A stretch of 64,000 bases of DNA from Marsupella aquatica (lineage: Eukaryota; Plantae; Marchantiophyta). The notes below the pieces were generated by a model that did no database searches, was not told the DNA's origin, and was given only the letters and a program-made list of their open reading frames with translations. The position numbers were made by a program, and so were the translations under genes. The stretch's first letter is position 1, and the number at the start of each line of letters is the position of its first letter. Shown piece by piece: positions 23,807 to 55,060 of this stretch. The stretch is taken from NCBI GenBank assembly GCA_973895155.1, contig OZ316892.1, forward strand, positions 15,492,861 through 15,556,860, in the 5' to 3' direction.

Positions 23807-23845
23807 TAAACTCTCAAACAAGGTAGCAAACCGTGCCACCTCCAC

Positions 23846-25319: not shown

Positions 25320-26368
25320 CCGTTTTCCCCTGAACACAAGGCCCGGGCACTATATTAGAATAGTGAGCCAAGGGGCGCTCTATTCGAATATAGCGCCAAG
25401 GGCGCTGTGTTTGAGTTTGAAGTCAACATTTTCATTTTTTGGACTTGTGGCGTTGTGTTCAAATTGTGGCGTTGTGTTCAAATTTAAGGTAATGTGCTTG
25501 AATTTTGGCTTTGTGAGATGCATATAGGGTGTAAGTAGGAATGATAGACATAGAAGTTATGTGTATTAGAGAGGAGTGTGTTCAAGTTTAGGTTTTTTGA
25601 CTTCCCAACAATATTTGCTCACGTCAAAGGATGTGTAGCTAAATAATTGAACCACTGAAATTACACAAGGGGAGAAATCAAATTTCAATAGAAAACAAAA
25701 CCTGACAAACCATACGTACCAAGTGTACTATTATCACTTAGTAAAACATATTCGTCCACTTTTCACAGTTGTTTGGTTTACTATGACCAATTTGCTCATT
25801 TCTATTATTTAATCTTTTTTCATGTAGCCTGGAATGTTCGTGAGACTGCTGTGTTTCTAGTGGAGTGCCTTGATCTCGAGGGCAATGGAAATTGAAAATA
25901 GAGAAAGTGAGTCATCAGACCTAATTATGCACATAGGCACTATGGGTTTTATTGACAAGACGTCGTGGCATCAGTCAGAGGTTGATGTGAAAGTCCGTTG
26001 AAAGTTCACACAACAAAAGAATATATTGATACTTCCGGATTGCTGCTTAACATTTTGGAAAGAGCACACACTTCTCCGAGAATGAAGTATTTTGAAATTA
26101 GCTTACATTTCTCAAAGGACGATGGATTTCGTAAGTTGAAAGTGCAGATATGTCGGATGATTTTAAGTAACGTATTGTAGTTGCAACCAGTTACCTTTCT
26201 CCTATAGTCACTTGTGCATTTTTGAACACAAAGTCAATTTTGAACACAACGCCCGGGCGCTGTGTTAATATGGCGTTGTGTTTGAGTGAAAACATCTTTT
26301 TTGCCTAAAGTCCCTGTTTTGACCATATTTGAACACAACGCCCGACCGCTGTGTTTGAGGGAAGACAG
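25320..26368. mobile_element. Non-autonomous Tc1/mariner/pogo-type MITE with TA TSD
   Basis: Left TA|CCGTTTTCCCCTGAACACAAGGCCCGGGC and right (reverse complement) TA|CTGTCTTCCCTCAAACACAGCGGTCGGGC. Subterminal GGCG(C/T)TGTGTT repeats occur at both ends; no coding capacity. Confidence 0.7.
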
Positions 26369-26392
26369 TAGCCCAATGTATCTGCCTTGTAC

Positions 26393-27115
26393 AAAGATGT
26401 CAAGGTGAGAAAAGTATGTAAAGGAAAGAAAAGAAAAGAAAAATATGTAAAAATGAGGAAAAGGTTTCAAGGAGAGAAAAGATGTCAAGGGTGAAGGAAA
26501 GATGTCGTTGTAAGATAAAGATGTAGTGATGAGAAAAAGATACAGAGATGAGAAAAATAAAAGATGTTGAGAAGAGAGAAAAATGTCAAGGTGAGAAATA
26601 AAATAGAGGAAAGGAAAAAATGTCGAGGAGAGAAAAGATCTCGAGGGTGAGAAAAACATGTCATGGTGAGATAAAGATATCAATGTGAAAAAAAGATGAT
26701 GATATGAGAAAGAAAAAAATGTAAAATGAAAGAAAGGTGTCAAGGACAGAAAAAAATGTAAAAATGAGGAAAAGGTTTCAAGTAGATAAAAGATGTCAAG
26801 GGTGAAGGAAAGATGTTGTTGTAAGATAAAGATGTAGTGGTGAGAAAAAGATACCGAGATGAGAAAAATAAAAGATGTTGAGAAGAGAGAAAGATGTCAA
26901 GGTGAAAAAAGATATAGAAGAAAGGAAAAAATGTCGAGGAGAGAAAAGATCTCGAGGGTGAGAAAAACATGTCATGATGAGATAAAGATATCAATGTGAG
27001 AAAAAGATGATGATATGAGAAAGAAATGCCAATGCAAGGAGAAGATGTTGAGGGGGAATGGATATGTAAAGATTAGAAAAAGATGTCAATGGGAGAAAAG
27101 ATGTCAAAGCAAGTC
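26393..27115 (+). repeat. Purine-rich tandem array (AAAGATGTCAAGG-like subunits; ~310-bp higher-order duplication)
   Basis: 26442-26725 is repeated at ~26752-27025. The Phe/Ser-rich minus-strand ORFs here are an artefact of composition. Confidence 0.85.
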
Positions 27116-27689
27116 AACAAATTAGGTCGAGTACCCCTTGTATATGTAAGCTTGTTTTATTGAACTATTTGGAGCCATCAAGAGTTTCACATTGGAGTAG
27201 ATAGATGAGAGGCCAAAGATTAAATGGAGGATTCCAAATGAAAGTGAATTTTAAAGGTAGTTAGGACAATTTCATTGAAGACATTCATGGTAATAGGAGT
27301 TCATGGTAATACGGAGGGTAATTCTCCATGCAAAAAGTTTCCCTTAGTAGCTCTATGTCTATAGAATACATGTAACATTTCATATAGTTCATGCAAAATA
27401 TTATTTTGTCCATAGTAGTTGAAAGGTTTTAGAGTACTTTGGTATTCCTTTACCCATGAAAATTATGGTGTTTCTTCCCTTTGCATGTTACTCCTCTATC
27501 CATAGTAGCCAATTGAAGGGTTTTTTAAATTACCTTGGTAAATGTTAGTGAAGTGGAAAAGTTTCTTGAGTTTCTTAATATGTTACCTTGGTAAATGTTA
27601 GAGAAGCTAAAGAGTTTCTTTCTATTTGTCCTTATTTCAAAAATGTGTAAATTAAATAGAAAATTCCTTTAAACATTTTTTCTTTTTAT

Positions 27690-30085
27690 TTATAATATTG
27701 GGCCATGAAAACCCCATGGTGGGGGGACCAGCAGACACAACCCTGAACCAACCAAAGGCAAACCCAACCAACTAACCTCTAAGCCCAGGCAAAAGTACCA
27801 ATGCAAGCCATTCACCATAGTCATTCATCCTAAGCAGCATTTAAACACCTGGCTGCCCATCTCATTTTAGCGTTACCCTTGGCAGAACCAAAAAAATGCA
27901 CCTGAGCTATTGGAGGCCTCAGCAGCACTACCCCAATGTAATCCAACAATCTCTATGTCGTATCCATACAATCCTCTCCCTATTTATTATTTCTTTCACT
28001 CTCAGCAGTCTAGTCCTTCTATTCCATTGGCAATGTAAGCACAACCGTAGCGACATGGTCAGCTGCCTTTGATAAAATGAAACAAATGTCAAATTTGCAA
28101 ACCCCTTTCGTTTTGAAACATGTGCTTGTTACGGCCCAACCATAGGGCCCACAGAATCTGGTACAATACAAACATCTTTAATATCTTCAGATACTCCTTC
28201 CCACACGCTGAGTCAATCATCCCCATCAGCCTCGCATTAGAGTCAACAAAGATACCTCCAAAGCACTGAACACAGAGTAACCAGCATTTATGTGCATGCA
28301 AACATCCCACAAACAGGTGTGGAATGGACTCAGAGGTACCAAGGCACAGCTTACACTCCCCATACCCTTGCCAATCTTCATCGCTTTCACCCCAGTGAAA
28401 AGCCCAGACGCCACAACCCTCCAAAGAAAGGTCTTAGCTTGCATTGATATGTTTGAGCCTTAGATCCCAACCCAACCCACTCTCCATTCATCCTTTGTCT
28501 TCACAATCCCGCACATCCTGTTCAGTCAGAGTTGATCCCTCACTTCTGGCCTGAGAAGCATATATGCTCTCTTATTCAGAATTTTGAATATTCTCAGCGG
28601 TGTTTTGTTGTCAATCCAGCACCAACATCCAGGTCCCGGTTCAAACCCCCATTTGCATTGTGTAATACTTGTCAGCATCACCATAAATCTTTGACCCAGT
28701 GTTAGATGTTTGCTTGTAAAGCCCCTTAGATCAATGTGTCCATCTCTCCATCATCGCTCTCCATCCACTTCCCCCGCTCCAACCATAGGTCCTGGATTCT
28801 CTTGAGGCCTAAGCGGCCACAAAGCACAGTCACAGCTACCATCTCATCTCTGCTCCACGACTGGGATCCTTTTGTACAGCGAAGCAAATCTCCAATCAAC
28901 CATCTGCCTGGTACTGTATCAGTTGGATAGAATATCAGATGTGCTCTCAACAATTTCCACACTTTCCAAAGCCCCCTATATATGCCACTCCATGCCATGC
29001 ACCTGGGCTGCATAGCAACATCTTGTCCCAAAATGTGTAACCATTTCTTGTAACCACTTTATAATTGGCCCATCCAATCAGATTTAGATTTTTAGCAAAC
29101 ATCTTGGCCCATTCTGAGTCAGGGTGGTCCATAGCACTGGTAAACCATTTTGAAAGTAACGCATCCGAGTGACTTTGGAAGTCCTTAAAACCCAGTCCCC
29201 CATCCACCTTGGGTCTCGAGATACGAGCCCAAGAGACCAGGGGCACCCTTCAACCCCCTTCATTGTTGTGTCCCCACGTACAGAAAGTCTTGACACAAAG
29301 TTGTCATCTTCCATGCCAGACTCATTGACGCTTTCATGAACATAGTATGGTTTATTGGTATTGTTAGTAAGATGTGCCTAACCAGAAGCGATCGCCCCAT
29401 AAAAGTTAGCATCTTATTGGACCAAGAAGACAATCTCTTGCCAATCTTATCTGAGCAGAAGCTAGGAAGCTATTTCGTCTTCAGATCAACACCCAATGGT
29501 GCCCCTAGATATTTTTGGAGCTCACCCCTAGCACTAATCACAGACCTTGTGTTATTCAGCCACTCAGATATAACCAACATTGCCAGCGGTATCACTATAG
29601 ATTTACGCAAATTTAGCCTAGCCCCAGTGGCCGCCTCATAGCACTAAATCACCGCCATTGCCCTCTAAAAGCTTCTTTCTATCATAGGGATGAACATCCC
29701 CAGATCATCCGCAAAGAATCTATAGCAAATAGTAAGTTGTTGGGATACATGAATCCCATCTAACCGTCCTACCCCAATTTCAGCATCCATATAACCCATT
29801 ACTTAAGGGTTGCATTGAAATGACAAAAAGGAGCGGCAATAGTGGGCAGCCTTGCTTTACCCCAGGTGCAAACCAATTTTCGTAGAGATCATCCGGTTCA
29901 CATAAACCCTCAAAGTTGCTTGCCTCGGTAACGCCAACACTAATTTGATGAATTCCCCACTTATTCCCAATAGATGCATAGTTTCCCATATATAGCTTTG
30001 ATCTACCCTATCAAAAGCCTTCTCAAAATCTAGTTTAACAAATAACACTTTGACTCTACGATTCTTCGCCCAATCAAACATTAAT
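27690..30085 (-). mobile_element. 5'-truncated, degenerate LINE (L1-like RT plus zf-RVT)
   Basis: KLDFEKAFDRV, GVKQGCPL.PLLF, FFADDLG, KYLGAP, VSWARISRPKVDGGLG, KTFLWR, C..C...ESIPHLFVGC. A T-rich tract near 27676-27690 is a possible poly(A) remnant. Confidence 0.9.
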
Positions 30086-30937
30086 TAGGCCACTTTCAAG
30101 AAATTTGGCTTGCTTTACCTCTGCGAGCCACTCTGAAAATCTTCTCTCCAGTTTGAGATTGCAAACCAACTTCAATGAGAGGAACAGGGCACGGCCTCTA
30201 CTGAAGGACGTACAAAACTTCACTTTTCAGATGCCATATCCTTTCCTCTCCACTCTCCTCTGAGTCTGCGTCAATCAATGGTAAGACATTGCTGGCCTCA
30301 AAGAGTGCCCACTCCCCAATCTCAACATCAAACCGACGAGCTAATTCATTGTCTGGTGTATGCCAAACAACACCATCAGTCGCAAGCACAACAACGTCTC
30401 CATTGTCTGGAAACGTGATCCTCACACGGCCAGCCATGATAAACACTTCAAGAAAGACTAATGTTGAGCACCACAAGAGTTCAAGTGGCATCTACCGACA
30501 GATTCCTTGTTCATGTAAGGGATTTAATTGCCTTTCCACGAGCATCAATTCCTCTTTGTTTCTCAAGAGTAGAGGAATTTTACGGTGCGAGCAAACATGA
30601 GTTTTTGCTAGCAAGGCAGCATTGTTAGCGAGGCACATTTTATGGTCAAACTCACAACACATTAATGGAAAAAACGACCAAATTTCACTGTTTTCCCTCT
30701 CTCAAAGTAATGAAAGTGTTATAACTATGGAAATTCATGCATGATTGTCATATGCATTCCATACTTGACTCTGCGCACAACGATATTGGAAAACAATAAC
30801 CGAATAGCAGGCACTTTCATGAGAACATGGTCATTCTTTATACATTGAAAGTATGGATATCCAAAAACCGGCACACAGAAAAAACTATAAGAGTCGATGG
30901 TAAGCAGTACAGCCAGTTTAACACTGAAGCTATTGCA

Positions 30938-33900
30938 TTAGTCATAAACCTCATCTTCTGAATCATCAGATATTGAACTTCTACTAGGATTGCTACTGGT
31001 CTCCCTCTCAGTAGACTCGGTAGACTCATCTAAATACTGGCTAACTATCCCTGCTTCATTGTCAATAAACCTTGAACAATCCAGATATCTACGAGCTCCT
31101 CTGATTGAGCGAAGCCCTTTCGCCTCCCAGGTCAAGACCACAGGAGCGTCATCAACCTCCTTCGCCGACTTCTCAGCATAGCACGGAAGAGTGAAAGGCT
31201 TCTCTGGAGTAACCACGATGGATTCCTCCACTTCCTTTCGAAGACAAAATCTCTCCTCATAAAACCAATCCACCCTCCTATCACTGAAGCAACCACCGGC
31301 ATCAGTTGAGGAAGAGCAACAAAATGAGTAAAACAAAAGAAACCAAATTGGGAGTCCGACACCAGAAGAGGCCAAGTACTTTACTCCAGGTCAAATTTGT
31401 CTTTCTCGCTTGAAGGTCCAGCCTGTTCATCTCCTGGTGTCGTGAACTCATCATCCGACCCAGCATCCTGATTACCCTTCTTTTCCTAATCTTTAATCAT
31501 CTTGGACTTGCTGGAGTGCCTCTCCAGAACGCTTGTTAAACCTTTCTGAGCACAAAAATGGAGAATGTCCCTGTCCTCAACACCAACAACAAACCGACTG
31601 GAGTATTCCCCTGCGGAAAATGAGCTTCCATCGCACACAGTCCAGTCAAGGACAATATCTCTCGGCTTCGTGAGGAACTCCATCACGGCTTGCATGAAGC
31701 CAATTGATAGCCTTTTTGATCCAGCAACGGCCGCTATTGGATAGGGGTCAATCTTTGGGTAACAAACGCTCAACATTGATTTATGCCTGGTATCTTCCAA
31801 AAACATCAAAGGAACATAGGCCCCTCTTTGGGAATTTTTGCATTAAATTCCACTCAACAGCAGATGTCCAAAATGAGAGTGCACACCTGAAGGAAGAATG
31901 ACATTCTATTAGAAAAGCCCAGAAACTTTGTTAGCGAGATCGCTCGCATTAATTTGAAGATGGAAATGAACCTTTTTTGAATTGAAAATGATAAGATGTT
32001 TGTTAGCGACATCGATCGCTAGCATAAACCCCATCAAAAATAGCTCAGTAATATGTACCTCAATATCCATATCGGCTCTCCATAAAGGAGTGGATAATAA
32101 AACTGTATATTGTTGTACGTGTTTGAATTTGTTTTATTGCTTGACCGCAGTAAATATTTGCCGCATGTGATTGAAATCCAAGCTATGAAGCACAGCCACA
32201 TATCCTTCGTCCGAAAGCATGGGTCTCATGACTCCAAAAAAGTAATAAGGCAACTTCTCGCTCCACACATTCCAGGGCGGGACCTCTTTGTCTGTAACGC
32301 GTGTTCTATGCCCTGTTGGAAGAGAAATGAATCCCAAATGTGCTCCAATCCCAGCATATGGCTTGCCGTTAATGATGACAGGGTTTGGGCATTCAACGCT
32401 CTTGGACATCCCAGCAATCCATCGATCTCCATCTCCCATCCAAGATGGCCTTACTTTACGCTGATAGAATTCGCAGTGTTGGTTAAATTACTGCGAGCAA
32501 GGAAATGTCTCTGGCCATCCATCTTCAACCCACACATCCAAGCGACGCCTTGAGCAACTGAAACTTCATCATCAAAATCCGACGGAATCTGGACATTCCT
32601 CTTTTGTTTCAGACGCTTTATACTTCCCAAATCCACTACGCTCTTTGTTGTTACTTCGACATCTGGGGACTGAGGTTCCTCTCCATCATCTGCCCCACTC
32701 TTCAAACTCTCAGAAGCAATACCCTTCCTCCTCTCTGTCAAAAAATAGCTATTAGAATTTGTCTCTTCATAAACACATAAGATCGTGAAAGGAAAATGAA
32801 ACGAAACATTGACACACTTACTTGGCTTTCCTGATATTTGGGACCCATCTTTAGATGTGTCTTTCACTGCACCTTTCCTTGGCTTTCGAGACCGACTCCT
32901 ATCCACTATTGCAGCTACACCAAGACAAGCCTTTTCCATAGCCTCGCAACCACCAACTTCAGCGTTAGTGGGTGCCAATTTGAACTCCGAGATGTAAGAC
33001 TCCGGAAGGAATCCACGATTGATCATATGAAGAGCGGCTTTCTCTGCAGTGTCGAAGGTGACAGACCACTTGTCTGAGTCCAAATACCATGGACAGTGAA
33101 GAATCTCCCACTTGCTCATTCTCCTCAGAGCCTCACATCCCTCGCAAGAAAACATAGAATAATCCCCAAATTTGTCACCTGTAGGATCCTCTTTAACTCC
33201 TGCAATCCATGGGGAGAAGCAAGTTGGGTAGGACCACCAGTAGAATTTGTCTGCTACTTCTCTGTCTACAAAAAATTGATACGTGTATCTCTTTGCTCTC
33301 CTTCGGAACAATGCAATCTCGATCTTCTCTCGTGTCTTGGGAGGCCAAATCTGCTTGAAGAAACGAGTCTTCACATGAGTTTGAAAATCCTCAAAATCCT
33401 CCTCAATGTCAAGGATGAGCGAAGCTTTGGTCTTTTCTGAAGAACTAAGGATCCGGGACTCTAGGATAGTAGACATAACCTCAGACACAATTTCAGACAT
33501 GAGGGAAGACGCAATTGACTCGACTTGCTCCCGCACTGCCCAACGGTGAAGCCAAAGCTTCGTTTCACTATCTAAAAATTGACTAGGATGAAAGAACTTC
33601 TTTTGAAGCTTTGGACGACACTGCACTTCCAGGAGTGTACATCGGAGTTCTGGGGATAAGGATGTCACCCCTGTGAACAACCAAGCTCAATCAAGACCAC
33701 AAGAAACATTTCCTCGTCCTTTGTCATCAGTTCTCTGGGCCTCCTTTCTCTCATTCTCGTAGTAGTTATGCATTTCTACACATTTCTTGAAAAAGTCTCC
33801 AAATTCTGGATTCATTAATGGACCGATCTTAGGAACTTTCACATTCCAATCAGCCAATTGCTCCTTCATCATCTCCCGCATTGCTGAGTCCTGTGAGGCC

Positions 33901-34977
33901 TTCGACAGGGGCTCCCCTTGAGCTTCCTTCAAAGCAAAGTTTTTCTTGAGGTCTTCCTTCTGAGATGCAATGTTAGCAGCGGATAGAATATAAGTGCAGG
34001 CATCCAGCATCATGTTCTTGGAATACCAAGCTGCCTTCCGCACGTTTGCCATCTTCTATTGGAAAAGTTTGTAATTCTCAGCATCGATGATATCCTTGTA
34101 AACTGACAAGTCGTTGTTCAGAATCTTCTGGACCCGTTCGGCCTCCAAAACCCAGGAGTTTTCAACATGACATTGTGTCAACCTGCCAGAGAATTTTCAT
34201 GTTAGCGAGATCGCTATTAGAAAGTGATTAACTGAAACACAAATTTCAGGAAAATGTTATACTTAGAAATTGCACCTATTCAATGCGTGCATTGCTGACT
34301 CGATCTGAACAAATGAGTTTTTATCACCCTTAAAAATCTTGCAAACAACTCATGGATGGTACTTAATATCTTCCGGATGCTCTTCTGCAAGTTGAGTACA
34401 AGAATACAGTCGATGGTTTCCATCAAAAACAAAGAACATCTTGTCTTTGAGGACGTGGAAAGATACATGGGAATCACAGTCGCGTTCGAACTCCTCGTTC
34501 TGCAGCACCCAAATGTCATCCCAAGTTTTGCGGATCGCATCAGTACACAATTGGAGCTCTCCATCCTTGTTGGTCATCTGTACGTAAAACCGAGGCGCAT
34601 CTTCAATGTAACCCTGGGTCCTGAACTCGGACTTCAGTGTGTCTATTGCAGTTGAATCCTTTTGCAGAGATCGAACAATTTGCATGTTCCTTATCCTGCA
34701 GAGAGGAATTCGAGGGGGAGCCAAAGAAAAACCAAACTCATTCACTCCGAAAGAGTAAAGATGACGGTTTATAACAACAGTATAAGATTCTGAAGCGCTC
34801 GGATCGAACACCGGTGCCACAACATCTACTGCTGTCACCATCTTGGGTCATGGAGTCTTCAATCTCGATGCTAGCACCTTCTTGTTCGCTATAGACCTTG
34901 TTTCTCTTCTAGTCGACTCCCTAGACTGGAACAATCCTCTGGAAGAAATACTCTTTGGAGACAACAATGACTCCATG
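30938..34977 (-). pseudogene. Multi-exon gene: N-terminal ParB/Srx-like domain and C-terminal beta-class N4C/N6A DNA methyltransferase-like domain; several stops and frameshifts
   Basis: FFVFDGNHRL (ParB-type DGxHR); AHLGFISLPTG..MRPMLSDEGYVAV (degenerate motif IV and R.L.pgG); MEFLTKPRDIVLDWTVCDGSSFSAGEYSSRFVVGVE (resembles T.pGD.VLDPF.GSGTT..AA...R..iG.E). Apparent introns at ~34184-34275, ~32737-32816 and ~31888-32057. Confidence 0.6.
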
Positions 34978-35558
34978 AAATAAAACCCTTTGCCAAAGAG
35001 TGTACTTTGCTGAAGAGTGTTCCTGTCCAGAGGATGCAACCCCAGCACGAGTGACAAATGTCAACAACAATCAGTACCGGACAGTCGTACAGACTGTTAC
35101 AAAGACCAGTTGAAGCCTAAAGAGGTACAGTCATGAATACAAAAGACGATGTTGAGTCCGAGGAAGGAATTACAGAAATCTCTTGGCAGAGATCACTAGT
35201 TGTACTTTTGGGAAAATGCAAAGAACAACTCTCACGGCCGGGAGTATGTAATCCATACAAAATAGGACAGGTGTCGGTCGTAGTTTGTACCGTTGACATT
35301 TTGGTACCCGTTGACTATTATCAACGAAATTCCAACGGTAAAATTGGAGACTATTGAAATTACTTTTTGGCTAGCGAGATCCCTGGCCTGAAATCCGTAG
35401 TCTATATCTACATAAAATCTAGGAAAATCTTTATAAATATATCCATAAAGCGTGTCATTATATGCTAGCGATCTTGCTAGCATGAGGACTTCGACGATAC
35501 AAGTAGTAAAAGACAAAACAATGATGACATCAACGGAAACTCTCTGACAATTTGGTCG

Positions 35559-38500
35559 ATGGGTTGTTTCCGTTGGGATGAAATGAGATTAAAGCTTCAT
35601 CATAAGGGTCATGTTGACGATCCTAAGCATAGTCATCTTCTTTTGTTGTCATCTAAAATTTTGTTTGGGATGATTGAGATGGCTTGCAAAGTCGTTTTGG
35701 AGCGTAGAATGATGAGAGATGTAGTTGTGCTTCCTAGCACACCAGGTTCATCGGAGGTGACAGTGATAGAGTCATTCCTTACAACTCGGTTTGGACTTCT
35801 AGATGGTGATATCATTTGCAAGTTGTTTGAGTTGTATTGTCAAAATGGAACACGTAGGACTCACGAGTTGAGAGAAGAGAGTAGTACTTCCAACAGGGTT
35901 TGGAAATTGAAGGTTGGATCTCATGTAGAGGTTGTGTCGAGTAAAGATGACATTCCTGAAATCATTCTGGACCATGTGGATTCTCCTCCTGAAGAAGAGA
36001 CTACTCGTGTGATCGATCTGGAAACGCCTACAAAAGAAATGGCCCCAGATATCATTGAAATATCTCTCGATAGTCTAAGGGAGGACACATCTTGTGGATC
36101 AGCCAAGTCAGGAGGTGTTTCGGAACCCGGAAGATTGGTCAAGAAAATGGATGTGCTTACCATGCCAATAGTGTATCGGATGAGTGCTTATGACGCTTTC
36201 CTCAATATAAGTGGCGCGAGTGAACTTGCATAATTTTGAAGAGGGAATCAGTGGAAGGAATGCCAGGTTCCTAGTCTGTCATCGACATACAATGGTAACG
36301 TTGTTTTTGAACTTCCTCCCATCGAAGGGTCCGAACGCGGAGGAGGTCTTCAAGATATGGATCGAGAGAACGACGGCTATCCGTGGACTCGACTTGTCAC
36401 TACATCTGCAAACCTGAAGCCAAGGTTCCATTGGTCTGTCTCGAAAGTCTGATGTGCTGGAATACTTGAATGCCAGAATTTGGGATGTCGGAAGTTCAAG
36501 CATACGAATGAGAAAAATGCTTGCTCGTTTAGAGGGAAAGGGTTACTGACTGACATCTTCCATCTTGGGGAGCACGTGAGTGAGGGTGGCATAGTCTTTG
36601 GATTTTGTGAAGAGCGACCGCTTTGTATTCAAAATTGTCCGGCAAAACTATTGTACGTGTACCATAAGCCAGGTTTGGAGAGTCACATTTCAATTCATAT
36701 GTCCAGGTTGGCTGTGCATATGGGATTCCATGACCATCCGATTTGGAAGGGGAAATCTCGTTCAGCGAGAAAGACTGCGGAAGATGTCATTTTAGGGGTC
36801 CATAGATTGAATCCAGTATCAACTTCAACACGTGTGAGATACCAATCCATTGGCAGCCTTGTCTCACTTTTGCATCCAGAATCATCATCTCAGTTGTCAA
36901 GAGAAGAACAGATGGAAATCTGGAGTTCCATAGGTGTGGTTTCCACTGCTCCCAAGTTCCAAGCTATACTCCGGAGTATCAAGATGGATAATCCCAAAAA
37001 AGGAGAACTTGATGCCCTTCGTGAAATGCAGTCAAGGAATATTTTCCTTTTGTGCAAAGGTACCTTTTTTCTGGTCAAGGGAATAAGAATGATCAAGCGC
37101 ATGTATTCAAAATGAGTACAAATGGACCTGGATCTGGTGTGGACATTTTGAGGAGCATGGAGTCTGGAGGAGTTTTGGAAGGTGCTTGGGTCAATTTTGA
37201 CGTGATGCATCGCATCACTACTAGATGGTTGACATTCAGTGCACATGTTTATGACCACAATTACCGGGCTCTGTGTACAATTTTTACTTGTGAGTTGAGA
37301 GCCGAAGACACCGAGTCCCTTGAAACTGCATGGCGATTGATGGTAGATGTGGCATCGGAGAATGGAGGATTCATAGCTGACAATGCAGAGGCTGGTTGGA
37401 TTGTTGTACGACGAGTTTTTTGGTGGTGTTCGAAATCCTATGAAAGAGCACAACGATGCTTTCCATTTTTCTCAGTCCCTAAGGAGACACACATTGGATG
37501 GCATCAAGGAGGGGTGTCATGCAGAGCATTATAAGATGTGGGAGAAGTTAAGGATTGCCCCAACTTACGTCGAAGCGTATAGAATTGCAAACGACATTCA
37601 AAATGGTGGAAAGAAGGGAATTGTCATCCTTCAAAGCTCAAATCCCTTCAAGGTTGGATTTCATGGTGGGTTGTGCGATGGAGACAATGGGGCAATTTTA
37701 TTTGAGTGGTAAGTTTTATCCATCATTTATGATCCATTTAAGCCAGCGAGATCGCTAGCCTAAATATCATTGTTTAACCCTGGCTAGTCTGTAACTAGTG
37801 TGCTTTCTGCTAGCGAGGTCGCTAGCCTAAATACATTGACTAACATTGATTCTGTGGCAAACACAAACTGCAAAAGAGTATGCCTTGATGCCAAACTGCG
37901 CGGGATCTAAATCTTCTCATGCTTCAATGCGATCCTGCCAACCAAAGAAGAGATTTGGTTTGATGGAAGCATGTGAAGTTGATCAAAATCGAGCAGTTGG
38001 ACAGATTGCCGCGTTCACTGCGTATATGGAAGGATGTCATCGTGGTAATGGTCCTACAATATTTGAGCTGGCCTATCGCAATGCAGATACTATGGGATCA
38101 TTGGATGCCTACGAGAAGGCATCCAATCTACTATTTGAATCCTCTGGAAAGTATGAGTTCTATAGAACAGAGCCTTTACATGGGGATATTCGGACAATGT
38201 CAGGAAAACGGAAGGGTAATGCTTCCGCGTCTATTCATGAGAATGATTCTCATCAACATGATAAAATATTGCGTATAGTGACATCTCCGTCAAGCTTGAA
38301 AAGAAGGAATCTGTACGCTGAATTCAGTAGTTTCAGAAGTGGTTCTGACCTTGGGGGACCGTCGTGTATTCCTGATAATGAAAACAGTCCCACTCGCAAG
38401 ACAGATGCTCTCCCTCGTGAAGTTACCAATATCTCAGATGATGGTGAAGAACAAAGCCTTGGAACAGATGTAGAAGGGACACTGATTACAAATGATGTTG

Positions 38501-39453
38501 GAGAAATACCATCTCCTCAAAATAGTCAGGATTGAATTCGGGATGCCCCCCGAAGGATCCCTTTTATTGAAGAGGTTGATATTTCGTACGGGACCTGGCA
38601 TTTAAGATGAAGTGGGAAAGGGAGTGGACCTGTGTGCAACGGACTAGTGGATCGGAGTGTCTTTGGTAGAGAAGAATGTCGTAATCTGATCAAGGAAACT
38701 GGATATAAAGCGTTACGGACTGGAGTTGTTGGTGTGGCCATTCACGGATTGAGGTTATCCTCCCCACATCGTCAGCTTCTATATTTCTGTCCAAATAATA
38801 AGTGCCATAAAACAGGTGGAAGAAGGACTCTTGCCCAGCTCCCGCAACCACCTGAGGCACTACAAGTCCAACGAGGAACTAGGCTGACCCTTGAAGAGAT
38901 TGATTTTCTCCTTCAAAATGGCTTTCAAATGATAGGGTTGTCATACTTTGATGCGACGCCAATCAGGTCATTCTCTCCTGCAAGTCGTCTTGACCTCCGA
39001 ATTGATGTGAACGCCTTCCCCGAAAGGGTTGACATTGCTTATTCAAATCGTCGATTGAAGACTCAGAATGGGAAAGGCGTTCGACAACATTTCCAGAACA
39101 CCCCTGAGCTTCTTAAATGCATTCGATCTGCAATTGTCGAACAGATGAGAGTCATTGGAAGTGACAAGATTTGCACAAGAAATGGATGGGGATGGCAATA
39201 TTTCATCGCTACTCACGAGAGTGACTCTAGAATTGCACACAACTACTGGGTTCAAGTGTGCTGCTTCCCTTGTTGCTCTTGTGATGACTTCTACAAGAGG
39301 CACACGCGAGGAAGACCCTACATGTCTTGTAAACATCTCCTCTGGGTGTACTTAAATAAGCTTTCGCTTAATCTAGAGAGAGACGATCTTGTGAAACAAC
39401 CAATTCTGACTGTTGGTGAACTGAGGAGTTTGATTCTGTTACACAGTAGTTGA
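35559..39453 (+). pseudogene. Mutator-like transposase with GCM/WRKY-like Zn domain, MULE DDE core and C-terminal SWIM finger; disrupted
   Basis: DGYPW..CAGILECQNLGC..CPAK..GFHDHP; NFDVMHR..GFIADNAEA..VF..DAFHFSQS; PCCSCDDF..SCKHLLWVY (CxCxnCxH). Intron donor GTAAGT at 37709. Confidence 0.75.
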
Positions 39454-40653
39454 GTCCATCACTTACATCCGTTAAGGTGGACGTTTAAGAGTACCTGTTT
39501 TTGTCGCATTCCAGGTTTCAAAACCTGAACAATGGACACTTTCCGAGTAATAAGAATGCTGATGGTATGTTAGCAAGGATCTTGTATATTAAGTGTGGGT
39601 CCTAAATGTTGCCTATTTTAACTAGCAATGTTGCTAACAATTAACAACACATATAAAGATGTAATTCGACCAAACTTCTGTGAAAGTTTAACATACACGG
39701 AGTGATTGCATGCCATCCACAACAAAAATCACTCAAGTACCGGTAGGCAATATTTACTAGCGATCTCGCTAGCAAGGTATGCACTCATGATATTGAAAAA
39801 ACTTTCAAAGCTTTATTCAGATATGCGTCCAATCTTTATCAAAACATCTGTAACTGACAAAATGTCCGTGTCCTACCGATCATTTCATTGAAAGGTCACG
39901 GACTTGACAGAGACTAACTGTAAAACTACGGGGGTTTGCAATGCGGAGTGATTGTCTAGGGTACTATTCATGGAGATGTTGCCTTGTAGGCGTCTAAACC
40001 TGTGTCCGAATCCGTATCATAATTGGACAAAGCTAGGATGTCGGATGTCCAGTAGTTGTGTATGTCGATGTCCCTCTAGTAAGACTCCTCCTCCTCTCTC
40101 TTCAGCTTCTCTGAAACTCCCTTAGAAATGGATACGTTTGTGCGAGAAGACATTGGTGCTCTAGAAACAACGCTTGAAGTTGTTTCCTTCGACGGTGCAG
40201 GTCGTTGAGTTGAAGCACAGACAACAGGCGGGACCCGACTGGATGATGATCCAGTCTTGAGCGGAGGGGGTATACTCTTCCTTGCCGGAGGAGAGCTTGG
40301 TGGCGAGTCCACTGGGCCATCAGTTTTGGCGTTGTAGCGGCGGACCTCCAGAACCCATTTGGCTTTTGGAGCGGAAGAGTCATCGTTCTTTGCCATTTCT
40401 GTCTGTAACAAACGCTACTGTGTATCAGATTACTTTCTCAACATGTGTTTACCAAATAGAAACAGTCACCTTCAAAACATCCAAGCTCATCGAGTCAAAA
40501 CGTGCAAAACTACGAGAAGGAAAATAGAACTGGGAAAACCAAACTTTCTCATTAACAATAACGCTACTTGCTGTGAAGAGGTCTCCCGGTGTCAAACTTA
40601 CATCTCCTTGTGCGACAAAAACTTTGCGAGAATGCGACACTCTCAAGAATACC

Positions 40654-43600
40654 TGTGACGCCGCCGGTACGACAAGTAATGAGCAATTTGGTCTAAACCG
40701 TGCCTAGCATGCGCGTTAGGGGTATCTTAGGCCGCTATGATTAGCATAACGACAGTACTTAGGTAGCCATTATGAGTAGGAAATCATTAGTCAATAAGGG
40801 GAATTCATGTTCGGGCTGGCGGCGCGTCGCCATTCGCACGTCCGGGTTACGAGCGTGGAGGGGCCCCTCCCTCGGGTCCATATAACAAACTTTGGGAGGC
40901 GTCCACTGACACGTGGTGACTCAGACCGGCGGAGTGGCCGGTACACTACAAGCGTGAACGGTTCAGCCTATAGGCAGTGAGGAGATGTTGGGGGATCGGC
41001 AAGCCCTCAAGGTATAAAAAGGGAGCCGACCCTTTGGAGTGCACCAGTCCATCAGTCCACGCGCCAGCTTCGACTCCAGCTCTCTCGTTCGCTCTAAGTC
41101 GCCACTACTATCTACTCTGAATGTCGCACACGATCCTCTCCAGCTCGGCCATTCGATTCTGGACGCAGTTCCTATCTACCGGAAGGCACTTGGCCGACTC
41201 ATTGAAACACGCCAACCCGCGCCGATACGAAATCGAACGCGAGTATGAGAGAGCCATCCGCCTAGCAGGACGACACCACTACATCCTTAACTTTGACTAC
41301 CCATCTCAGAGCGAGCTTTACCGACCAGCAGAGGTATCTGGGTACTTCTTCAACGGAGACAAATATATTGGTTTCTGGGAAGCATTGCTTCGGCTTCCGG
41401 ATGAGGTCTTCAATATCCCGGGTACGATCGACTTGCAACGACATCACTTTGACCACATCCCTGCTCAGGTTCGGGCTATCATCAACAGCGAGTCCAGCCC
41501 TACCCGTTCGACAAGGTCGTTCGCACTTGCTTCGGAGAACTTCTACCAGCACCTGTAGAGCTTCATGGAAACTAGACCCGCAACCACCAGCGCCAGCCCA
41601 GTGGACCCCATACCCGTACCCGTACCAACGCAGACTCAGGCTCAGGGTCAGCTTCAGTCTCAGCCTCAGCCTAGCCAACCCCCACCGCCAATCGCCCCAC
41701 CAGCAGTACAAGTACGCTCCGTCATCAACGCTGTGGACCTTAGCGATGATGACGAGGCTACCCCACCCTTGCTCAGGCGGCCCAGAGGAGTAAACACTCA
41801 GGGGGCCGACACTACATCGTCCCCTCCCCATGCTCGGACCCAAGGAGCGGCTCCAGCAGACAACACGGTGACCGTGGCCGCCCCGGGACCAATACTAACG
41901 GCGGTAGCACTACCTATGCCCGATCAAGAGGATGGGGAGGTGTCACCTTCCCCGAGCCAGTCACGGGGGAAGAAGAGGAAGGAACCCACCACTGCATCCG
42001 GGTTACCATTGGCCATGGTAGCCGTGGCCAAGGTAACAATGCACCGCATGGGGGAAAACGTGCATAAGAACATCCTCCATCCCAAGCATGCGGTGTACCT
42101 GAATACTCAGGGATTCGAGCACCTCGCCGCTCTGCCCTAGAACACTTGCAGGTACTACGGGGAGGACATGACAGAATTCGTCAAGAATTATGATGACACA
42201 CGTCAGCATACTCGGCTGCGGGGAAGGAATATGTCCCTCACGGAAGAACGGCTCAAGATGATCTTCGGATTACCCGAAGGTGACCATCGAGTCGAATCAT
42301 GGGCTCCCGGGGGCAAGGGAGCCAAGTACCAATCCTTGAGTTTTCCCTCTGAAGGAGCAGTGGACAACGGGTTCGTGATGAGGACCTGCCTCATCCCCGA
42401 GATAGCTGAGCGACTGGAGTTCCAGAGGTACGCCCTCCACATGATGGAACCCCGGGGGGAGATCTCCGCCGCCCAGGTTATCCAGGTCGAGAACTCTCGA
42501 CCTAGGAAGTGGGCATCGTACTTCGCTAAGAAATTCCATGAAGAGATGGAGCGGCGAAGGAAGATGCTGTACATTGGCAGGAAGGCGTATTTCGCTAGCC
42601 ACATCGAGATCATTCTTGAGTGGTACGCTCGGTTTGATCAACGAACCCTTCCCCGTGTCAATGTTACAAAGCTGGTCCCAGCTAGGTGGGTTTTCCCGGC
42701 CTTGGAGAGACGGCCCCAACCCGAGGCCCGAAGTCCAGCGGACACGCCAGCTTCACCCACCCCACCTCCACAAGTAGTTGTAGTCATAACCGAGGAGGTA
42801 CCGGATGGGTCGGTTATCGCAACCGTTGATGTGATCCAACAGGCCGAGCTAAGTACAGAAGTCGGTACGGCGGAGGTCTTACTCGAGCCCGGGTCTCCCA
42901 AAGACCCACCGGTGGCTATTTTGGAGAACCGGACATTGCTGCAGGAGGACACTCCAGCCCCTTCCAACATTACGTCCCCAAGGCTGGATGTCACTCCCCC
43001 AGCCCCCGCGCGTGTTGACGTCTGCCCGTGCCCAACTCCGGACAGGCACAACCTGGACCACCCGAAACTCTTCGTACCGGATACATTTCTGAACGGGCTT
43101 CTGGGAGATTTCTCTCATCAAATTGCCCGGGATACCGGGGAGTTCATGGCCCGGAAGGTAGTCTGTTTCTTCAATTAGGAGTTAGTTGCCGCAGTAAAGG
43201 CAGGTCAGGCCCAGTCAGAGGCCCTTCAGAGGATAGAGCGGTACCGGGTGGAGTCCGTATACTTAAAGAACGAAGTTGCGGCTCAAGAGGCTGAGCTTCT
43301 GCAACTACGACCCAAAGTTGCAACTGCTGATGATTTGTTAGCAAAGGCGCACGCCCTTACCGCCCTAGCCGAGTAGGCCAAAGCTGGGAACGAGGCCGAG
43401 ATTGCACGACTCCGGAACCAGATTGACAGTTTGAAGAATCAAACTGTCATCTGGCAGAAGGACCTGGAGGAGGCCAAAGAACGGGCCCAGCGGGACACTG
43501 CGGAGATAGCCACGCTACAGGCTGAAGTGGCACGGCTCCAAACTGAAGCCAAGAAGCAGGACCAGCTGGCGGGCAAGCTGACGAGCGACGCCCAGCAGCT

Positions 43601-44555
43601 AGAGGAGGCATGCCAGGAGGCCGCGGAGGAGACAGACGCGGCGAAGCGAGAGAACGAATCTTTGCTGGACCAGGTCCAGCTCCTCAAGGCAGACAACGAC
43701 AGACTTCGTAAGCAGCGGGATGGCCGCTCCCACTCGGGCAGCTCTGGCAAGCGTACCAGGCATTAGCGGCGGAGTAGAAATAGAATAGGGTTAGGAGTAG
43801 CTAGGTCAGGCTATTGGGATAGGCACCTGCCTTAGTTACAGCAGTACTGCCATGCTGTCCAGCCTACGTAGATTAGGATCTTCTAATAAGACACAACCGT
43901 TTTTCGGCTTGACAGTCAGATTAGTTAGGACCTAAGTCAGCGAATCTTTGGGTGGGAGGACACTCCGTTCCCCGGCCCTTAGTATTTAGTGCACCCCTCG
44001 GTAGAGGCAGGGGGGGTTTTTAGTCTCAGAGTTGGACATCCGTGATATGTGCGGGGAGTCCCGACCTCTAGGAGTGAAAGAGTACCAAGGGGAGGAGGTA
44101 GGACTAAGCTCGTCGGGCGAGTGCGGAGCCGGGCTCCGTTGTAGTATACTCTCTCGGCCTTGAACCTGTTCATTCCGGAGCTATCGAGTCAACCAAGTGT
44201 ACGCACATGTCCCCTATGTAGTAAAATCCTTTCCCATTATTTCCTTCATGTAAATCGAGATTGTATGCTCGTGCGCGTGTATGTGTGTATGAATCTCGTG
44301 TATAGGTGACAACGCCGGGCTGAACGCACTACCCGAGTCGTGCACGGGGTGCAGCTTGCGGGGATGTGGTTGCAAGCACGGGTTGAGGACCTGTATCATA
44401 GAATCCGGATCGAAGGCGGACAACACGAAGGCTTAGAAGTCCTTAAGCCGAGGTCGATCCTGTTATCGACTAAGGTACATTCCGGCAGCGGAACACAAAC
44501 CATACCTAGGAGATGTCCGTATCTAACAGTAGGCGCACTTAGCGGCGGCGTCACA
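40654..44555 (+). repeat. Left arm (position of the 3' LTR), bounded by a perfect 12-bp inverted repeat TGTGACGCCGCC..GGCGGCGTCACA
   Basis: Read directly from the sequence; TATAAAA at 41013-41019 points inward. Confidence 0.9.
41121..43766 (+). pseudogene. 882-codon arm-encoded ORF (Pro/Gln linker, plant-transposon extra-ORF-like domain, C-terminal coiled coil); 4 in-frame TAG stops
   Basis: ORFs at 41121, 41565, 42168 and 43431 share one frame, with stops at 41556, 42138, 43176 and 43374. EFVKNYD..LRGRNMSLTEERLKMIFGLP resembles the EFY.N..VRG..I.F....I...LGLP motif of plant retrotransposon accessory ORFs. Confidence 0.8.
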
Positions 44556-47500
44556 TAGCTCCCTGCTTAATTGTGAAGCGTCCTCGCGAACATCACTCTC
44601 GGCGTCATCGTCGTCTTGATGGTGGTACTTCCTTACACGATCGTAACTAACTCGCGTGGGGAGTAAATCGCCGGCGTACGTCGCAAGCTCCAACGATCCG
44701 TTAGGGTAGATCTGATTGACTAGGAAGGGCCCTAACCAACGGGTATGAAGCTTCCCTAGAAACTGCATGTACCTATTGTCGTACAGAAGGACTAGATCGC
44801 CTGTCACGACGTCGACCTTTCGTAGTCCTTTGTCATGCTATTTCTTGGAAGTTGTCTGCTTCATTACGGCGTGTCGAGCTGCTAGTAGCCGTGCCTCTTC
44901 CAAGGTTTCAATTTGATAAGCTCGGTCTGACGAACTTTCAGATTCAAGTAAGCGATCCCGAATGCTGACCCGTGGAGTGTGTACTTCAAACTCAACGGGC
45001 ACCAACGAATGTTGGCCGAACACGAGAAAGTACGGGCTATGACTCGTATTAGTTTTGTAAGCTAGATTATACGAGTACACCGCTGCGTACAACTTATCAT
45101 CCCAATCCGTTTTGTGCACAACTATAGTTTTGTTGAGGATCTTCCCAATGATACCATTTGCTCTCTCTGCCATCCTGTTGGCTTTAGGATGATACAGGGT
45201 AGTCTTGCGGTGCTTGACTAGGTAACGCTCCGTAAGTTGGGCTACAGTGTCATTGAGGAAGTGTGTTCCACGGTCGCTTACCAACTCTAAGGGTGGTCCA
45301 AACCGGGTGAAAATCTGTTCATATAAGAACCTGGCGCTGGTTGCGGCATCGTCCTTCATCGTAGCCCGTGCTTTGACCCACTTGGTGGAGTAATCAATAG
45401 CTAGCAGGATGTACTTGCATCTTCGTCTTCGGGTAACAGGAGTAAATGGCCCGATATAATCAATACCCCACTTTTCGAATGGTGCTAATGGAAGTACGGA
45501 CGTGAGAGGGTGATGATGAGCTCGTCTCGGGGCCCCAGCCCGCTGACACAGGTCACAGCCCTTGATGAAGCGTTGTACATCCCGATGCAACGTAGGCCAC
45601 CAATATCCGGAGTCCAGAATCTTTTCGGTTGTTGTGATAGCCGCGAAATGGCCTCCAGCTTCTTCTTCATGCAAGGCCCGCATCACGATAAGCGTCTCCA
45701 GCCTTATACTCCAAGCAGCGTCGTAACTTCCCATTAACTCCTTCCTTATGTAGGTGACCCTGTACCATGACGTAAGGCCCGGCTTTCCGTAGAAACACAA
45801 CGGTGGCTTCCTGATTAATGCCGTCAGGGATGCGGTCTGTCAAGAGGAAGGTGATTATTGAGCCGTACCACGTTGGCGTCCCCGCCCCTACGTGGAACAA
45901 CTCCTCATCCGGAAAAATATCATCAATTGGCTGATCGACTGGTACGCCGTCCAGCCTTGAAAAGAAGTCGGCATTGAGGTGTGCCTTTCCGGGCCGAACC
46001 CGAACTTTGTAGTTAAATTCCTGGAGAAGTAGCACCCACCGGGCTATCCGTCCCGTCCGCTTTGTTGACCATGTACTTAAGGCTATCATGATCCGTGTGG
46101 AATATGACCTTGTAGCCTAGCAGATAGTGTTGGAACTTTTTACACGAGTAGATTATTCCCAGAGCTTCTCGATCAGTGGGGGAATAATTCTTTTCGGCTG
46201 TGAATAATTGACGGCTAGCGAAGTAGATGGGGTGGTCGCGTCCGTTCTCATCAAGCTGACTGAGCACGGATCCAATACAGAACCCTAACACATCGACATA
46301 CACGTGGAACTCCTTATTCCAGTCCGGAGTGACCATGATAGGTGCGGTGGTGAGTCTTTTACGGAGTTCTTCGAAAGCAATCCGTCTCCTGGGTGTCTCC
46401 TTGATCACCGCGTCCTTTTTCATCATCTCAGTCAAGGGCAACGCTATTTTAGCAAAGTCTTTAATAAACCGACGGTAATACCCTACACAGCCCAAGAAGG
46501 ATCGTACCGCTTTTTGATCTATGGGAAACACCACCGCCATCCAGGCCGCGACCTTCTCTTGGTCCACCTCGATACCCCGTTTGGACATACGATGCCCGAG
46601 TAATACTCCCTCCTCTACCCCGAAAAAACATTTAGCGGGATGTAGTTTGAGTTTAACCTCTCGGCATCGTTGGAACGTACATCTTAGGTGTTCGGGGTGC
46701 ATGGCGACAGTTCCAAAGATGGCAAAGTCGTCGATAAATATCTCCAGAAATTCCCGTAGGAAATCATGGAAGATATTATCATGAGTCGCTGAAACATGGC
46801 CGGAGCGTTACACAATCCGAACGGCATTCTCCGAAATGCGAAAGTCCCCCATTCCGTAGTGAACGTTGTTTTGAGCTGATCCGAGAGGCGAATCCAGATT
46901 TGGTTATAACCCGAATACCCGTCAAGAAATGTATAAATTTCATTTCGGGCTACCATATCTAGAACCATATCCGTGAATGGTAACGGGTAATGGTCTTTTC
47001 GGGTCGCATTCAGCTTACGGTAGTCCTGACAAATCCGGATCTTAGGTTTTCTGTCCGTTCCTCCCTTTTTTGGTACAATGACGATGGGAGAGACCCAGTC
47101 GCTGGCCATTACCGGGTAGATGATATCTGCGGCGAGGAGACGATCAATTTCCTCCTTCACTAAGATGGAGTACCTTGGGTTCATGCGACGTTGTCGCTGC
47201 CGTACTGCATGGGCCCCCAGATTCAAATCGATCATGTGTTCTCCTAACTCGGGGGAGACTCCTGTTAAATCGTGATGGCTCCATGCAAACACATCTTCAT
47301 ATTCCTTGAGCAGAGCTTGGATAGATTTTTCCGCCTCCCTTGTCAGAGCGTGGCCTAGGTTAAACGATTTATCCATCCCAATGGTGTACTTCCGGTAGTG
47401 CTCCTTCCTGATGACTTCAACCTGGTTCCGCAAGCTTGGGTCTAGGCTCACATCAAGTTCAGCTAACCAAAATCCTCCGTACATGGGTGGAACCAGGATT

Positions 47501-50017: not shown

Positions 50018-50110
50018 TTACTCGTGTAAATGCGATGGTTAGTACTAGGGCCTGGTGTATTCTGCCCAGGCGAATACACACATGTCTCCCCTCTACGATA
50101 TGTAGAGTGC

Positions 50111-50128
50111 CCCTTCCATCTAGCGCCA
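50111..50128 (-). other. Primer binding site, tRNA-Asn type
   Basis: Minus TGGCGCTAGATGGAAGGG, about 2 mismatches to the recalled plant tRNA-Asn 3' end CCCCTCCTTCTAGCGCCA; ~95 nt upstream of the gag ATG. Confidence 0.75.
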
Positions 50129-50141
50129 AAAACAAAGGCTA

Positions 50142-54097: not shown

Positions 54098-54789
54098 ATA
54101 CCAAATCCCCTCCTCGCCCGCGGATATGACAACACAAACTCAATTGAAGTTACTCTGCGATGCGAAGACGATCGCGAAAGAGTGAGGAGATGATGAAAGT
54201 CAAATAATGAGAACACTGTTAGGAATGGAGATGAGTTGAGAGGTCCGAATGACATATAGTGCATTTTGGGAGCCTCAGATCTTTTGAAACGGTTTTGCGT
54301 TTCACGCTTCACTCATGAGGAAGGGGACATTGGATTTTGTCATGATATGATCTGGTGTAGTGCTGTTGCTGCAACCGTTAACACCCGTGCTTTCTAATGA
54401 GTGCTTTTTGTGTGGGTCATGACCGCACAAAGTATTTCGTGCAAGAATGATGGGCAGAGTTATGGCTAGCAACTTTGCTGGCTTGATGTACATTGGAATT
54501 ATATATTGAATTATGGTGCCATCGACGACCGTTTGTATCTGGGGAATACGTAATATGTACCAATCCATCGTCGGGATCGCTTTTTAAACCTAACGGGAGT
54601 TAAATAAATAGGTGGAATAGAAGGTTCCTTTTAGGCTAGCAAGAGTCACTTTATGCTAGCGAGGTTGTTTTTGTGCCAAATTTTGGGTATTCCAAGGAGA
54701 AAATGATCCCATGCGAGGAATTTTTGTACTATTTCCTCGCAAGCTACAATGACCCTCAAGAGCATAACTTAATCAACAAACAATATGTG

Positions 54790-55060
54790 AAAACTATTAT
54801 TGATTCTTATGACTTTGTTTTGGCAGAGTACCTTATCGCCCAGACAAAGCATAAAACTGTTATCGACACTTCTTTCTTTGTTGAATATGTGAAGATTGTT
54901 TTGTCAGAGTACCTTACCGCCCAGACAGAGCGGAAAAACTATTAAGAGTTGCTTCTTTCTTTGTTGAATATGTGAAGATTGTTTTGTCAGAGTACCTTAT
55001 CGCCCAGACTGAGCGTAAAACTTGTTACAAATATTTTTCCCCCGTTGAATATGTAACAAT
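54790..55060 (+). repeat. Short degenerate tandem repeat (TTGTTGAATATGTGAAGATTGTTTTGTCAGAGTACCTTA.CGCCCAGAC)
   Basis: 2-3 copies visible at ~54815, ~54878 and ~54961. Confidence 0.8.

Follow-up and report, generated by a model that had tools for sequence, protein, structure and literature searches.

A ParB-fold, methyltransferase-like cargo gene and candidate palindromic binding sites in a decayed, likely Mutator-type transposon of a liverwort

Introduction

The nearest described parallel to the locus reported here is an accessory gene of the Ectocarpus transposon Sola1-1_Ec32, whose product has ParB-like and N4C/N6A methyltransferase domains and has been proposed to bind and modify its own element (Dinatale et al. 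2025, PMC12477816). Here, we analyze a 64,000-nucleotide stretch of the liverwort Marsupella aquatica (contig OZ316892.1; the whole stretch is called the window below), in which a pseudogene of comparable make-up, termed the cargo gene, lies head-to-head with a transposase pseudogene.

Several other systems share parts of this arrangement. In the red alga Bostrychia, Plavaka elements carry PAG2 and PAG3, of which PAG3 has a ParB domain and lies beside inverted-repeat arrays (Petroll et al., bioRxiv 10.1101/2025.02.11.637652). VANC, the accessory protein of VANDAL elements, recognises motifs that are specific to each family, lie in introns and between genes, and are frequently repeated in tandem (Hosaka et al. 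2017, PMC5735166), and bacterial ParB, according to published abstracts, loads at the 16-bp parS site and then slides. The Marchantia MpDN4MT1 genes are host genes for N4-methylcytosine (4mC) methyltransferases with a canonical TSPPY motif and proven activity (bioRxiv 10.1101/2021.02.12.428880). Fusions of Dam-type enzymes with ParB and helix-turn-helix (HTH) domains have been described in chlorophytes and chytrids, and few such enzymes in land plants (Iyer et al. 2016).

On balance, we favour the reading that the window holds one decayed member of a transposon family, likely of Mutator type and with many copies in a seedless plant, and that the cargo protein would recognise 16-bp palindromes of its own element and so shield or regulate the element's chromatin.

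Results

The cargo gene and its relatives

The window is eukaryotic and repeat-rich, with remains of long interspersed nuclear elements (LINEs) and Ty3/Gypsy retrotransposons. The two divergent pseudogenes (Table 1) are separated by ~580 bp, counted from the cargo ATG, where its relatives begin to align, to the first ATG of the transposase. This agrees with the head-to-head pair ~600 bp apart reported in a preliminary description made from the sequence alone, and the minus-strand motifs quoted there were found in the stated order, namely: FVFDGNHRL near 34430, HLGFISLPTG..RPMLSDEG at 32340-32200 and LTKPRDIVLDWTVCDGSS..SRFVVGVE at 31675-31575. The same description took this copy to be pseudogenised and the cargo gene to contain introns. 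Both claims hold, given the stops and frameshifts in the two genes and the introns predicted from splice sites and homology breaks (Table 1). Two of the cargo stops are TGA codons at positions where relatives have Arg, the pattern expected of CpG decay.

The cargo gene is predicted to encode a single protein, since a natural relative (P0117) reads across the frame break at 32453 and a full-length Riccia protein of 1207 aa (P0157) is collinear with all three cargo parts (E 1e-53, 7e-4 and 0.024). A phmmer search of 1.84 billion representatives gave 300 cargo relatives at E<=1e-3. Those with names come from the liverworts Riccia sorocarpa and Calypogeia fissa and the fern Adiantum, while others lie on intron-bearing metagenome contigs; three metagenome loci (L020, L027 and L004) have the identical ParB-middle-methyltransferase order, with introns. 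None of 295 pattern matches was confirmed in a first metagenome scan, and none of 38 in viral contigs. The metagenome scan used below confirmed 161 of 540 candidate stretches, from which 80 loci were kept.

At the C-terminus of the cargo (30960-31060, minus strand), FIDNEAG is followed by an acidic tail, and relatives have YLDLEA, YVDDIA or FIDDEAE at this place. We take it to resemble the short acidic motifs recognised by TFIIS-N-type domains in elongation factors.

The N-terminal domain has a predicted ParB fold

A model of the N-terminal domain from 41 sequences reached a predicted local distance difference test score (pLDDT) of 90. In a VIA search of 48,161 chains, 12 rows had Z>=2 and nine of these, including the top nine, were of the ParB/sulfiredoxin (Srx) fold (Z 5.5 to 2.5). 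VIA matches of the domain include ParB, Noc, KorB, Srx and SerK, and in this unbiased search sulfiredoxin and SerK ranked first. When 85 Foldseek chains were realigned, Myxococcus ParB came first (Z 6.5, root-mean-square deviation 2.0, 70 residues) and ParB chains stood above Srx. The scores are middling, and it is the consistency of the top ranks that argues for the modelled fold. The ParB fold expected earlier is thus recovered at the level of a structural model, and Pfam gave no ParBc match for this domain. PDB sequence searches with the ParB open reading frame (ORF) and with a ParB profile also found no relevant match.

Conserved positions in the domain include R59 (37/39 sequences), G143 (38/41) and R146 (37/41), as well as N144, H145 and the terminal Asn. 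In Caulobacter ParB, CTP binding requires R60, R103/R104 and N136 (PMC8367383). Mapped by motif position, R59, G143, R146 and the terminal Asn of the cargo would occupy the places of these CTP-binding residues. Atlas scores for the ParB exon were 0.90-0.91, and we use them as a lead only; 0.90 was reached with clusters of DUF3723 (fungal) and DUF6551 (bacterial), which hints that these families may have the ParB fold too. A literature search for DUF3723 together with ParB found nothing.

The middle exon is conserved in relatives and is 43% identical to P0004. It has no Pfam match, and a word-based search among longer proteins came back empty; its best Atlas match (0.85) was disregarded. We consider the middle region a candidate for DNA binding and dimerisation.

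Family-specific palindromes in the non-coding parts of the element

The best clue to mechanism is a repeated palindrome, which the preliminary description missed. An unbiased word count of the element gave GCTAGCGA as its most frequent 8-mer. When up to two mismatches are allowed, the 16-mer palindrome CTAGCGAGATCGCTAG, with a central GATC and two CG, occurs seven times within 30.2-40.65 kb (mean 0.01 over 100 shuffles) and nowhere in the remaining 53 kb of the window. The copies are confined to the introns of both genes, the intergenic gap and the region 3' of the transposase. Judged by sequence, they are candidate cognate binding sites present in cis.

Related loci often have a series of their own. 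In the same blind test, applied to 24 non-redundant related loci (2-7 kb), 11 hold at least three copies of a near-palindromic 16-mer vs. 2 of 25 control tiles, and both positive tiles overlap a single array at 55.4-56.0 kb. The palindrome differs by family: GTGCCGGTAAAGGCAC in L011; TGGGTCG-nn-CGACCCA in L014; (C/G)TCTCGG-nn-CCGAGAG in L030, L031 and L054, with variants in L050; and a longer CTCCAACTTT-type palindrome in L056 and L063. In ten loci, 1 of 95 palindrome sites overlaps a coding match, where ~27 would be expected. The types also differ between ParB clades, and a tree (24 labelled of 31 rows, selected from 61) requires 5 changes for 6 types, the minimum possible, although this test is weak because three of the types are singletons.

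The methyltransferase-like domain has a degenerate motif IV throughout the family

In the C-terminal part of the cargo, motif IV precedes motif I, which is the beta-class order, and there is profile homology to N4C/N6A methyltransferases. The motif-I ORF of the window matches NF010253 (E 0.0028), and its only two PDB matches are both of one adenine DNA methyltransferase (E 0.039); with the Riccia protein or a methyltransferase profile as query, the PDB yielded no relevant sequence match. A Riccia-seeded search gave 26 proteins, all from R. sorocarpa, and 15 of 24 aligned Riccia paralogues match PF01555 (best 1.9e-7), the scores shown being all below the curated cut-off. When the profiles were built from relatives only, leaving out the window, the motif-IV exon was still found at E 2.9e-9, against 2.4 for the best reversed-sequence null, and the motif-I exon at E 5e-7. 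The homology to N6_N4 methyltransferases proposed in the preliminary description is therefore supported; the Rossmann fold was not recovered by structure, as the model of this domain had a pLDDT of 38 and no usable fold.

The catalytic motif of beta-class amino-methyltransferases is (D/N/S)PP(Y/F/W), and its aromatic residue normally stacks on the flipped base. In Riccia, all 22 rows that cover motif IV (of 31 aligned) read D[LM][PS][ST], and an aromatic fourth residue is present in 0/22. Elsewhere the motif is SLPT (the window), FLPT (a close relative), DYPE and DIPE (two metagenome loci) or DVPF (one fern protein only), and the aromatic residue is nearly always absent. Motif I of Riccia, DFAGGWG, is close to the canonical form; the window has DWTVCDG, and others have DWNASTG or DCHAMTG. 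Hence the degeneracy first noticed as SLPT is real and extends across the family, beyond the decay of this copy. Catalysis by the domain is doubtful because motif IV is non-canonical throughout the family, and it appears fairly likely that the domain binds S-adenosylmethionine (SAM) or DNA rather than methylating.

Copies, transposase and extent of the element

Both genes and the leftmost ORF (Table 1) are covered by thousands of contigs with 80-100% identity in two public runs of near relatives, which supports a multi-copy family, as had been supposed. Three of the four frameshifts coincide with small indels in some contigs. The summed depth over 30.2-39.4 kb in one run is 1200-6650, compared to 84 for a flank-identical contig; as depth is not copy number, we read this only as many diverged copies. 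The long related loci are heavily decayed, and non-redundant grouping of those with >=5 kb upstream leaves six. In two of these (L063/L066 and L065), a transposase of the same family lies on the opposite strand 5-9 kb away, and the ParB domain there has an identity of only 34-37%. At the end of L011 is an ORF on the opposite strand that looks, by eye, like the start of the transposase.

The transposase shows a Cys/His region ending in GFHDHP, followed by FDVMH, GFIADNAEAGW, FHFSQSL and a terminal CSC..CKH. We take it to be Mutator-like on the strength of a GCM/WRKY-like Cys-His region, an Asp at 37196, another near 37380, an xFH motif and a SWIM-type CxC..CKH, all compared by eye with the patterns of the superfamily. 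The Mutator-like label of the preliminary description thus stands as a match of motifs by eye, and finds no counterpart in profile searches. A plasmid tblastn with the DDE piece also gave no match. We also considered whether the transposase belongs to Sola1 and, going by its motifs alone, did not adopt this.

To the right, a 13.4-kb retrotransposon (40654-54097) is flanked on both sides by ATACC, and palindrome half-sites resume after it, so the element likely extends past 54098. This retrotransposon is of Ty3/Gypsy type with TG...CA ends, and its two ~3.9-kb long repeats are mutually inverted (96% complementary) rather than direct. The left repeat has a short terminal inverted repeat of its own (40654 and ~44555), and each arm contains a long ORF; the arrangement represents either inverted long terminal repeats or an assembly artefact. 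Further right, a 43-bp tandem array of 14.5 copies with internal palindromes (55394-56016) adjoins 83-bp repeats (54815-55027). The array may be the right end of the element or a part of another one. On the left, a decayed minus-strand LINE (27950-30200; RVT_1 E 7e-4) is truncated where the leftmost ORF of the element ends.

Table 1. Features of the element in the window (positions are those of the window).
Feature	Position	Strand	Basis or remark
Cargo pseudogene: ParB-fold domain, middle region, degenerate beta-class amino-methyltransferase domain, acidic tail	30938..34976	-	
Predicted ParB/sulfiredoxin-fold domain, motifs IPLCR..VR, DGNHR, AMHxLN	34277..34730	-	model, structure matches, conservation
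Middle exon, ~450 aa	32822..34182	-	conserved in relatives; no known family
Methyltransferase-like domain, N-terminal half	32059..32450	-	motif IV (FISLPTG)
Methyltransferase-like domain, C-terminal half	31489..31886	-	motif I (DIVLDWTVCDG)
Predicted cargo introns	34275-34183, 32821-32735, 32058-31887; uncertain, ~31384-31284	-	GT-AG sites and homology breaks
Cargo in-frame stops (7)	34850, 34352, 34058, 33689, 32136, 31856, 31488	-	
Cargo frameshifts (2)	near 32453 and 31815	-	
Transposase pseudogene	35556..39453	+	Mutator-like by motifs compared by eye; homologues in L063/L066, L065
Predicted transposase intron	37709-37876	+	
Transposase stops (5)	36231, 36237, 36450, 38533, 38608	+	
Transposase frameshifts (2)	near 37040 and 37415	+	
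Palindrome copy, cargo intron 3	31931..31946		CTAGCGAGATCGCTAG type; weaker copy at 32003
Palindrome copy, cargo intron 1	34202..34217		
Two palindrome copies, gap between the divergent genes	35371..35480		at 35371 and 35465
Two palindrome copies, transposase intron	37743..37825		at 37743 and 37810
Palindrome copy, 3' of transposase	39622..39772		at 39757; weaker copy at 39622
Decayed ORF, likely part of element	30201..30701	-	no Pfam match; half-sites at 30607, 30624
Ser/Pro-rich ORF, likely part of element	39700..40414	-	no Pfam match
Likely continuation of element beyond nested retrotransposon	54098..54700	.	half-sites at 54635, 54655

Genomic setting

An intron-rich gene on the minus strand (15500-24000) is presumably cullin-4-like, judging from its translations. 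Upstream of it, 25329-27120 holds palindrome-like repeats of the GAACACAACGCCCGGGCGCTGTGTT type and a purine-rich 19-bp array, possibly another non-autonomous element. From their translations, we take 58055-59202 to be a Gypsy integrase fragment with a PHD-like finger and 62518-62868 a processed fragment resembling ribosomal protein L18a. Rfam gave no matches over 29.5-57 kb.

Discussion

Proposed role of the cargo protein

The proposal that the cargo protein, ParB-fold and methyltransferase-like, recognises the 16-bp palindromes of its own element is based on several features taken together: the fold of ParB, the presence in cis of 16-bp sites with twofold symmetry, site sequences specific to each family, and placement in non-coding DNA. 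The protein would probably bind the palindrome as a dimer, and each transposon family would carry its own site, so that the protein acts on its own copies only. VANC offers a functional model, with binding in introns and intergenic regions, family-specific tandem motifs and a spreading loss of methylation, and ParB a possible mode of spreading, by loading at 16-bp parS and then sliding. It is, in our estimate, close to evenly balanced whether the cargo protein loads and spreads in a nucleotide-dependent manner, as ParB does from parS, and opposes silencing by the host in the manner of VANC. A more far-reaching version, in which liverwort and fern transposons carry a working ParB-parS clamp that is loaded by CTP at its own palindrome and slides, and whose repurposed methyltransferase domain blocks or rewrites host methylation, seems unlikely at present. 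It would amount to a eukaryotic anti-silencing system assembled from components of bacterial chromosome partition.

Several observations weigh against our favoured reading. Fewer than three palindrome copies were found in 13 of the 24 related loci, many sites sit in tandem arrays and are hence non-independent, and the repeat of L015 differs from that of its close kin. All Z-scores of the ParB domain are below 8, Foldseek gave no match at E<=0.001 (Noc and sulfiredoxin topping its list), the Srx and SerK enzymes have the same fold, and the cargo has GNHR where ParB has GERR. Family searches located no HTH or other DNA-binding domain in the cargo, and the DNA-binding part is unlocated because the ~450-aa middle region matches no family. 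The transposase pieces have no Pfam, NCBIfam or PDB sequence match, its zinc region no relevant PDB match, and the transposase itself could be the palindrome binder. No terminal repeats of the element, such as the long inverted ones of Mutator elements, and no target duplication (9-11 bp in that superfamily) were found in the window, where the ends are obscured by the LINE and the nested retrotransposon, and no contig bridges both genes among the matches listed. Finally, four of the six loci with >=5 kb upstream have no transposase within 5-10 kb, so that the linkage proposed in the preliminary description is borne out in two of the six and not in the others.

Alternative explanations

The methyltransferase-like domain could instead be a working one. 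As an active DNA amino-methyltransferase, the cargo would then deposit 4mC or N6-methyladenine (6mA) near the palindromes and thereby mark the element. Its retention across liverworts, ferns and metagenome loci would suit such a role, as would the near-canonical motif I of Riccia, the Asp of motif IV kept in 22/22 rows, the DVPF of the fern relative, and the central GATC and two CG of the window palindrome. Since the aromatic residue is missing from all 22 Riccia rows, motif IV reads DYPE, DIPE, SLPT or FLPT elsewhere and motif I has drifted to DWTVCDG, DWNASTG and DCHAMTG, we regard this explanation as improbable; inactive methyltransferase domains borne by transposons also have a precedent in DIRS1 (PMC4738411). 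It is likewise rather improbable, and slightly more so, that the palindromes are transposase binding sites or by-products of tandem amplification, with the ParB-fold cargo doing another job such as a nucleotide-using enzymatic step. The transposase does have a Cys/His region, which we take from its motif to be DNA-binding, the 43-bp array at 55.4-56.0 kb is palindromic as well, and sulfiredoxin and SerK head the unbiased fold search; AtMu1 transposase, according to a preprint, activates cognate copies in a sequence-specific manner. Palindromes are nevertheless found within introns of the cargo gene, and around this gene, in loci where no transposase is seen, and with a twofold symmetry over 16 bp they would suit a dimer of the ParB type. 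ParB chains also score above Srx on direct alignment, and the red-algal elements have inverted-repeat arrays beside a ParB gene on another transposase superfamily.

A very unlikely explanation is that the two genes do not form one unit, their pairing being local and the cargo coming from a separate or non-autonomous element or switching between superfamilies. The four loci without a nearby transposase and the missing element ends would agree with this, and algal accessory genes are described as changing carriers. Against it, one palindrome is common to the introns of both genes, both genes are covered alike in the two runs, and the same transposase family stands head-to-head with the cargo even in loci as diverged as L063/L066 and L065.

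Novelty and significance

The ParB-methyltransferase architecture and the idea of self-binding are already in print for algae, and the novelty of our locus is lowered by Sola1-1_Ec32 as its closest precedent. What appears to be new is that such a family exists in land plants, that its active site is degenerate throughout, and that the palindromes form a series of types, each specific to a transposon family. Our literature search, from whose scope subscription papers, Repbase and bioRxiv supplements were excluded, found no report of a ParB-methyltransferase transposon cargo in land plants. The liverwort and fern family adjoins a tractable model lineage, and its six palindrome types provide matched pairs of protein and candidate site, with which binding, CTP dependence and specificity can be directly tested. 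A positive outcome would demonstrate that a clamp of the ParB type acts on eukaryotic chromatin, and could yield sequence-specific epigenome tools.

Comparison with known systems

Of the known systems, MpDN4MT1 also places a prokaryote-type beta-class amino-methyltransferase in a liverwort; the likeness is one of shared class. MpDN4MT1 represents host genes, and the word ParB is absent from that preprint. With bacterial ParB clamps such as Noc and KorB (PMC8367383), the cargo shares the N-terminal fold as modelled, the conserved Arg, Gly and Asn positions, as mapped by motif, and the 16-bp palindromic candidate sites; it differs in having GNHR for GERR, an insertion in the fold, introns and a fused methyltransferase-like domain, with no ParA and no HTH identified.

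VANDAL elements are Mutator-like, as the window family likely is, and resemble it in having an accessory protein and motifs particular to each family, which lie in introns or between genes and are commonly tandemly repeated. The function of VANC is proven, whereas the cargo of the window fuses ParB-fold and methyltransferase-like domains and has 16-bp palindromes as its candidate sites. To our knowledge, VANC is unrelated to ParB. General library scans of the window and its relatives gave no VANC-type Pfam match, and no direct comparison with VANC was made.

Two algal systems are also comparable. Plavaka PAG2/PAG3 likewise features a ParB accessory protein beside inverted repeats, with proposed binding to its own transposon, and has homologues on Chondrus Mutator elements; there, the ParB domain is fused to a 2-oxoglutarate (2OG) oxygenase, the adenine methylase is separate and SET-fused, and the carrier is CACTA/Plavaka. 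Sola1-1_Ec32 belongs to a brown alga and a Sola1 carrier, whereas the window family belongs to land plants and a likely Mutator carrier, and the palindromic site and the degenerate motif IV of the latter are not mentioned in the passages on Sola1-1_Ec32. As far as its described architecture goes, however, it resembles our locus in encoding a ParB-methyltransferase protein of ~1100-1200 aa on the strand opposite to the transposase.

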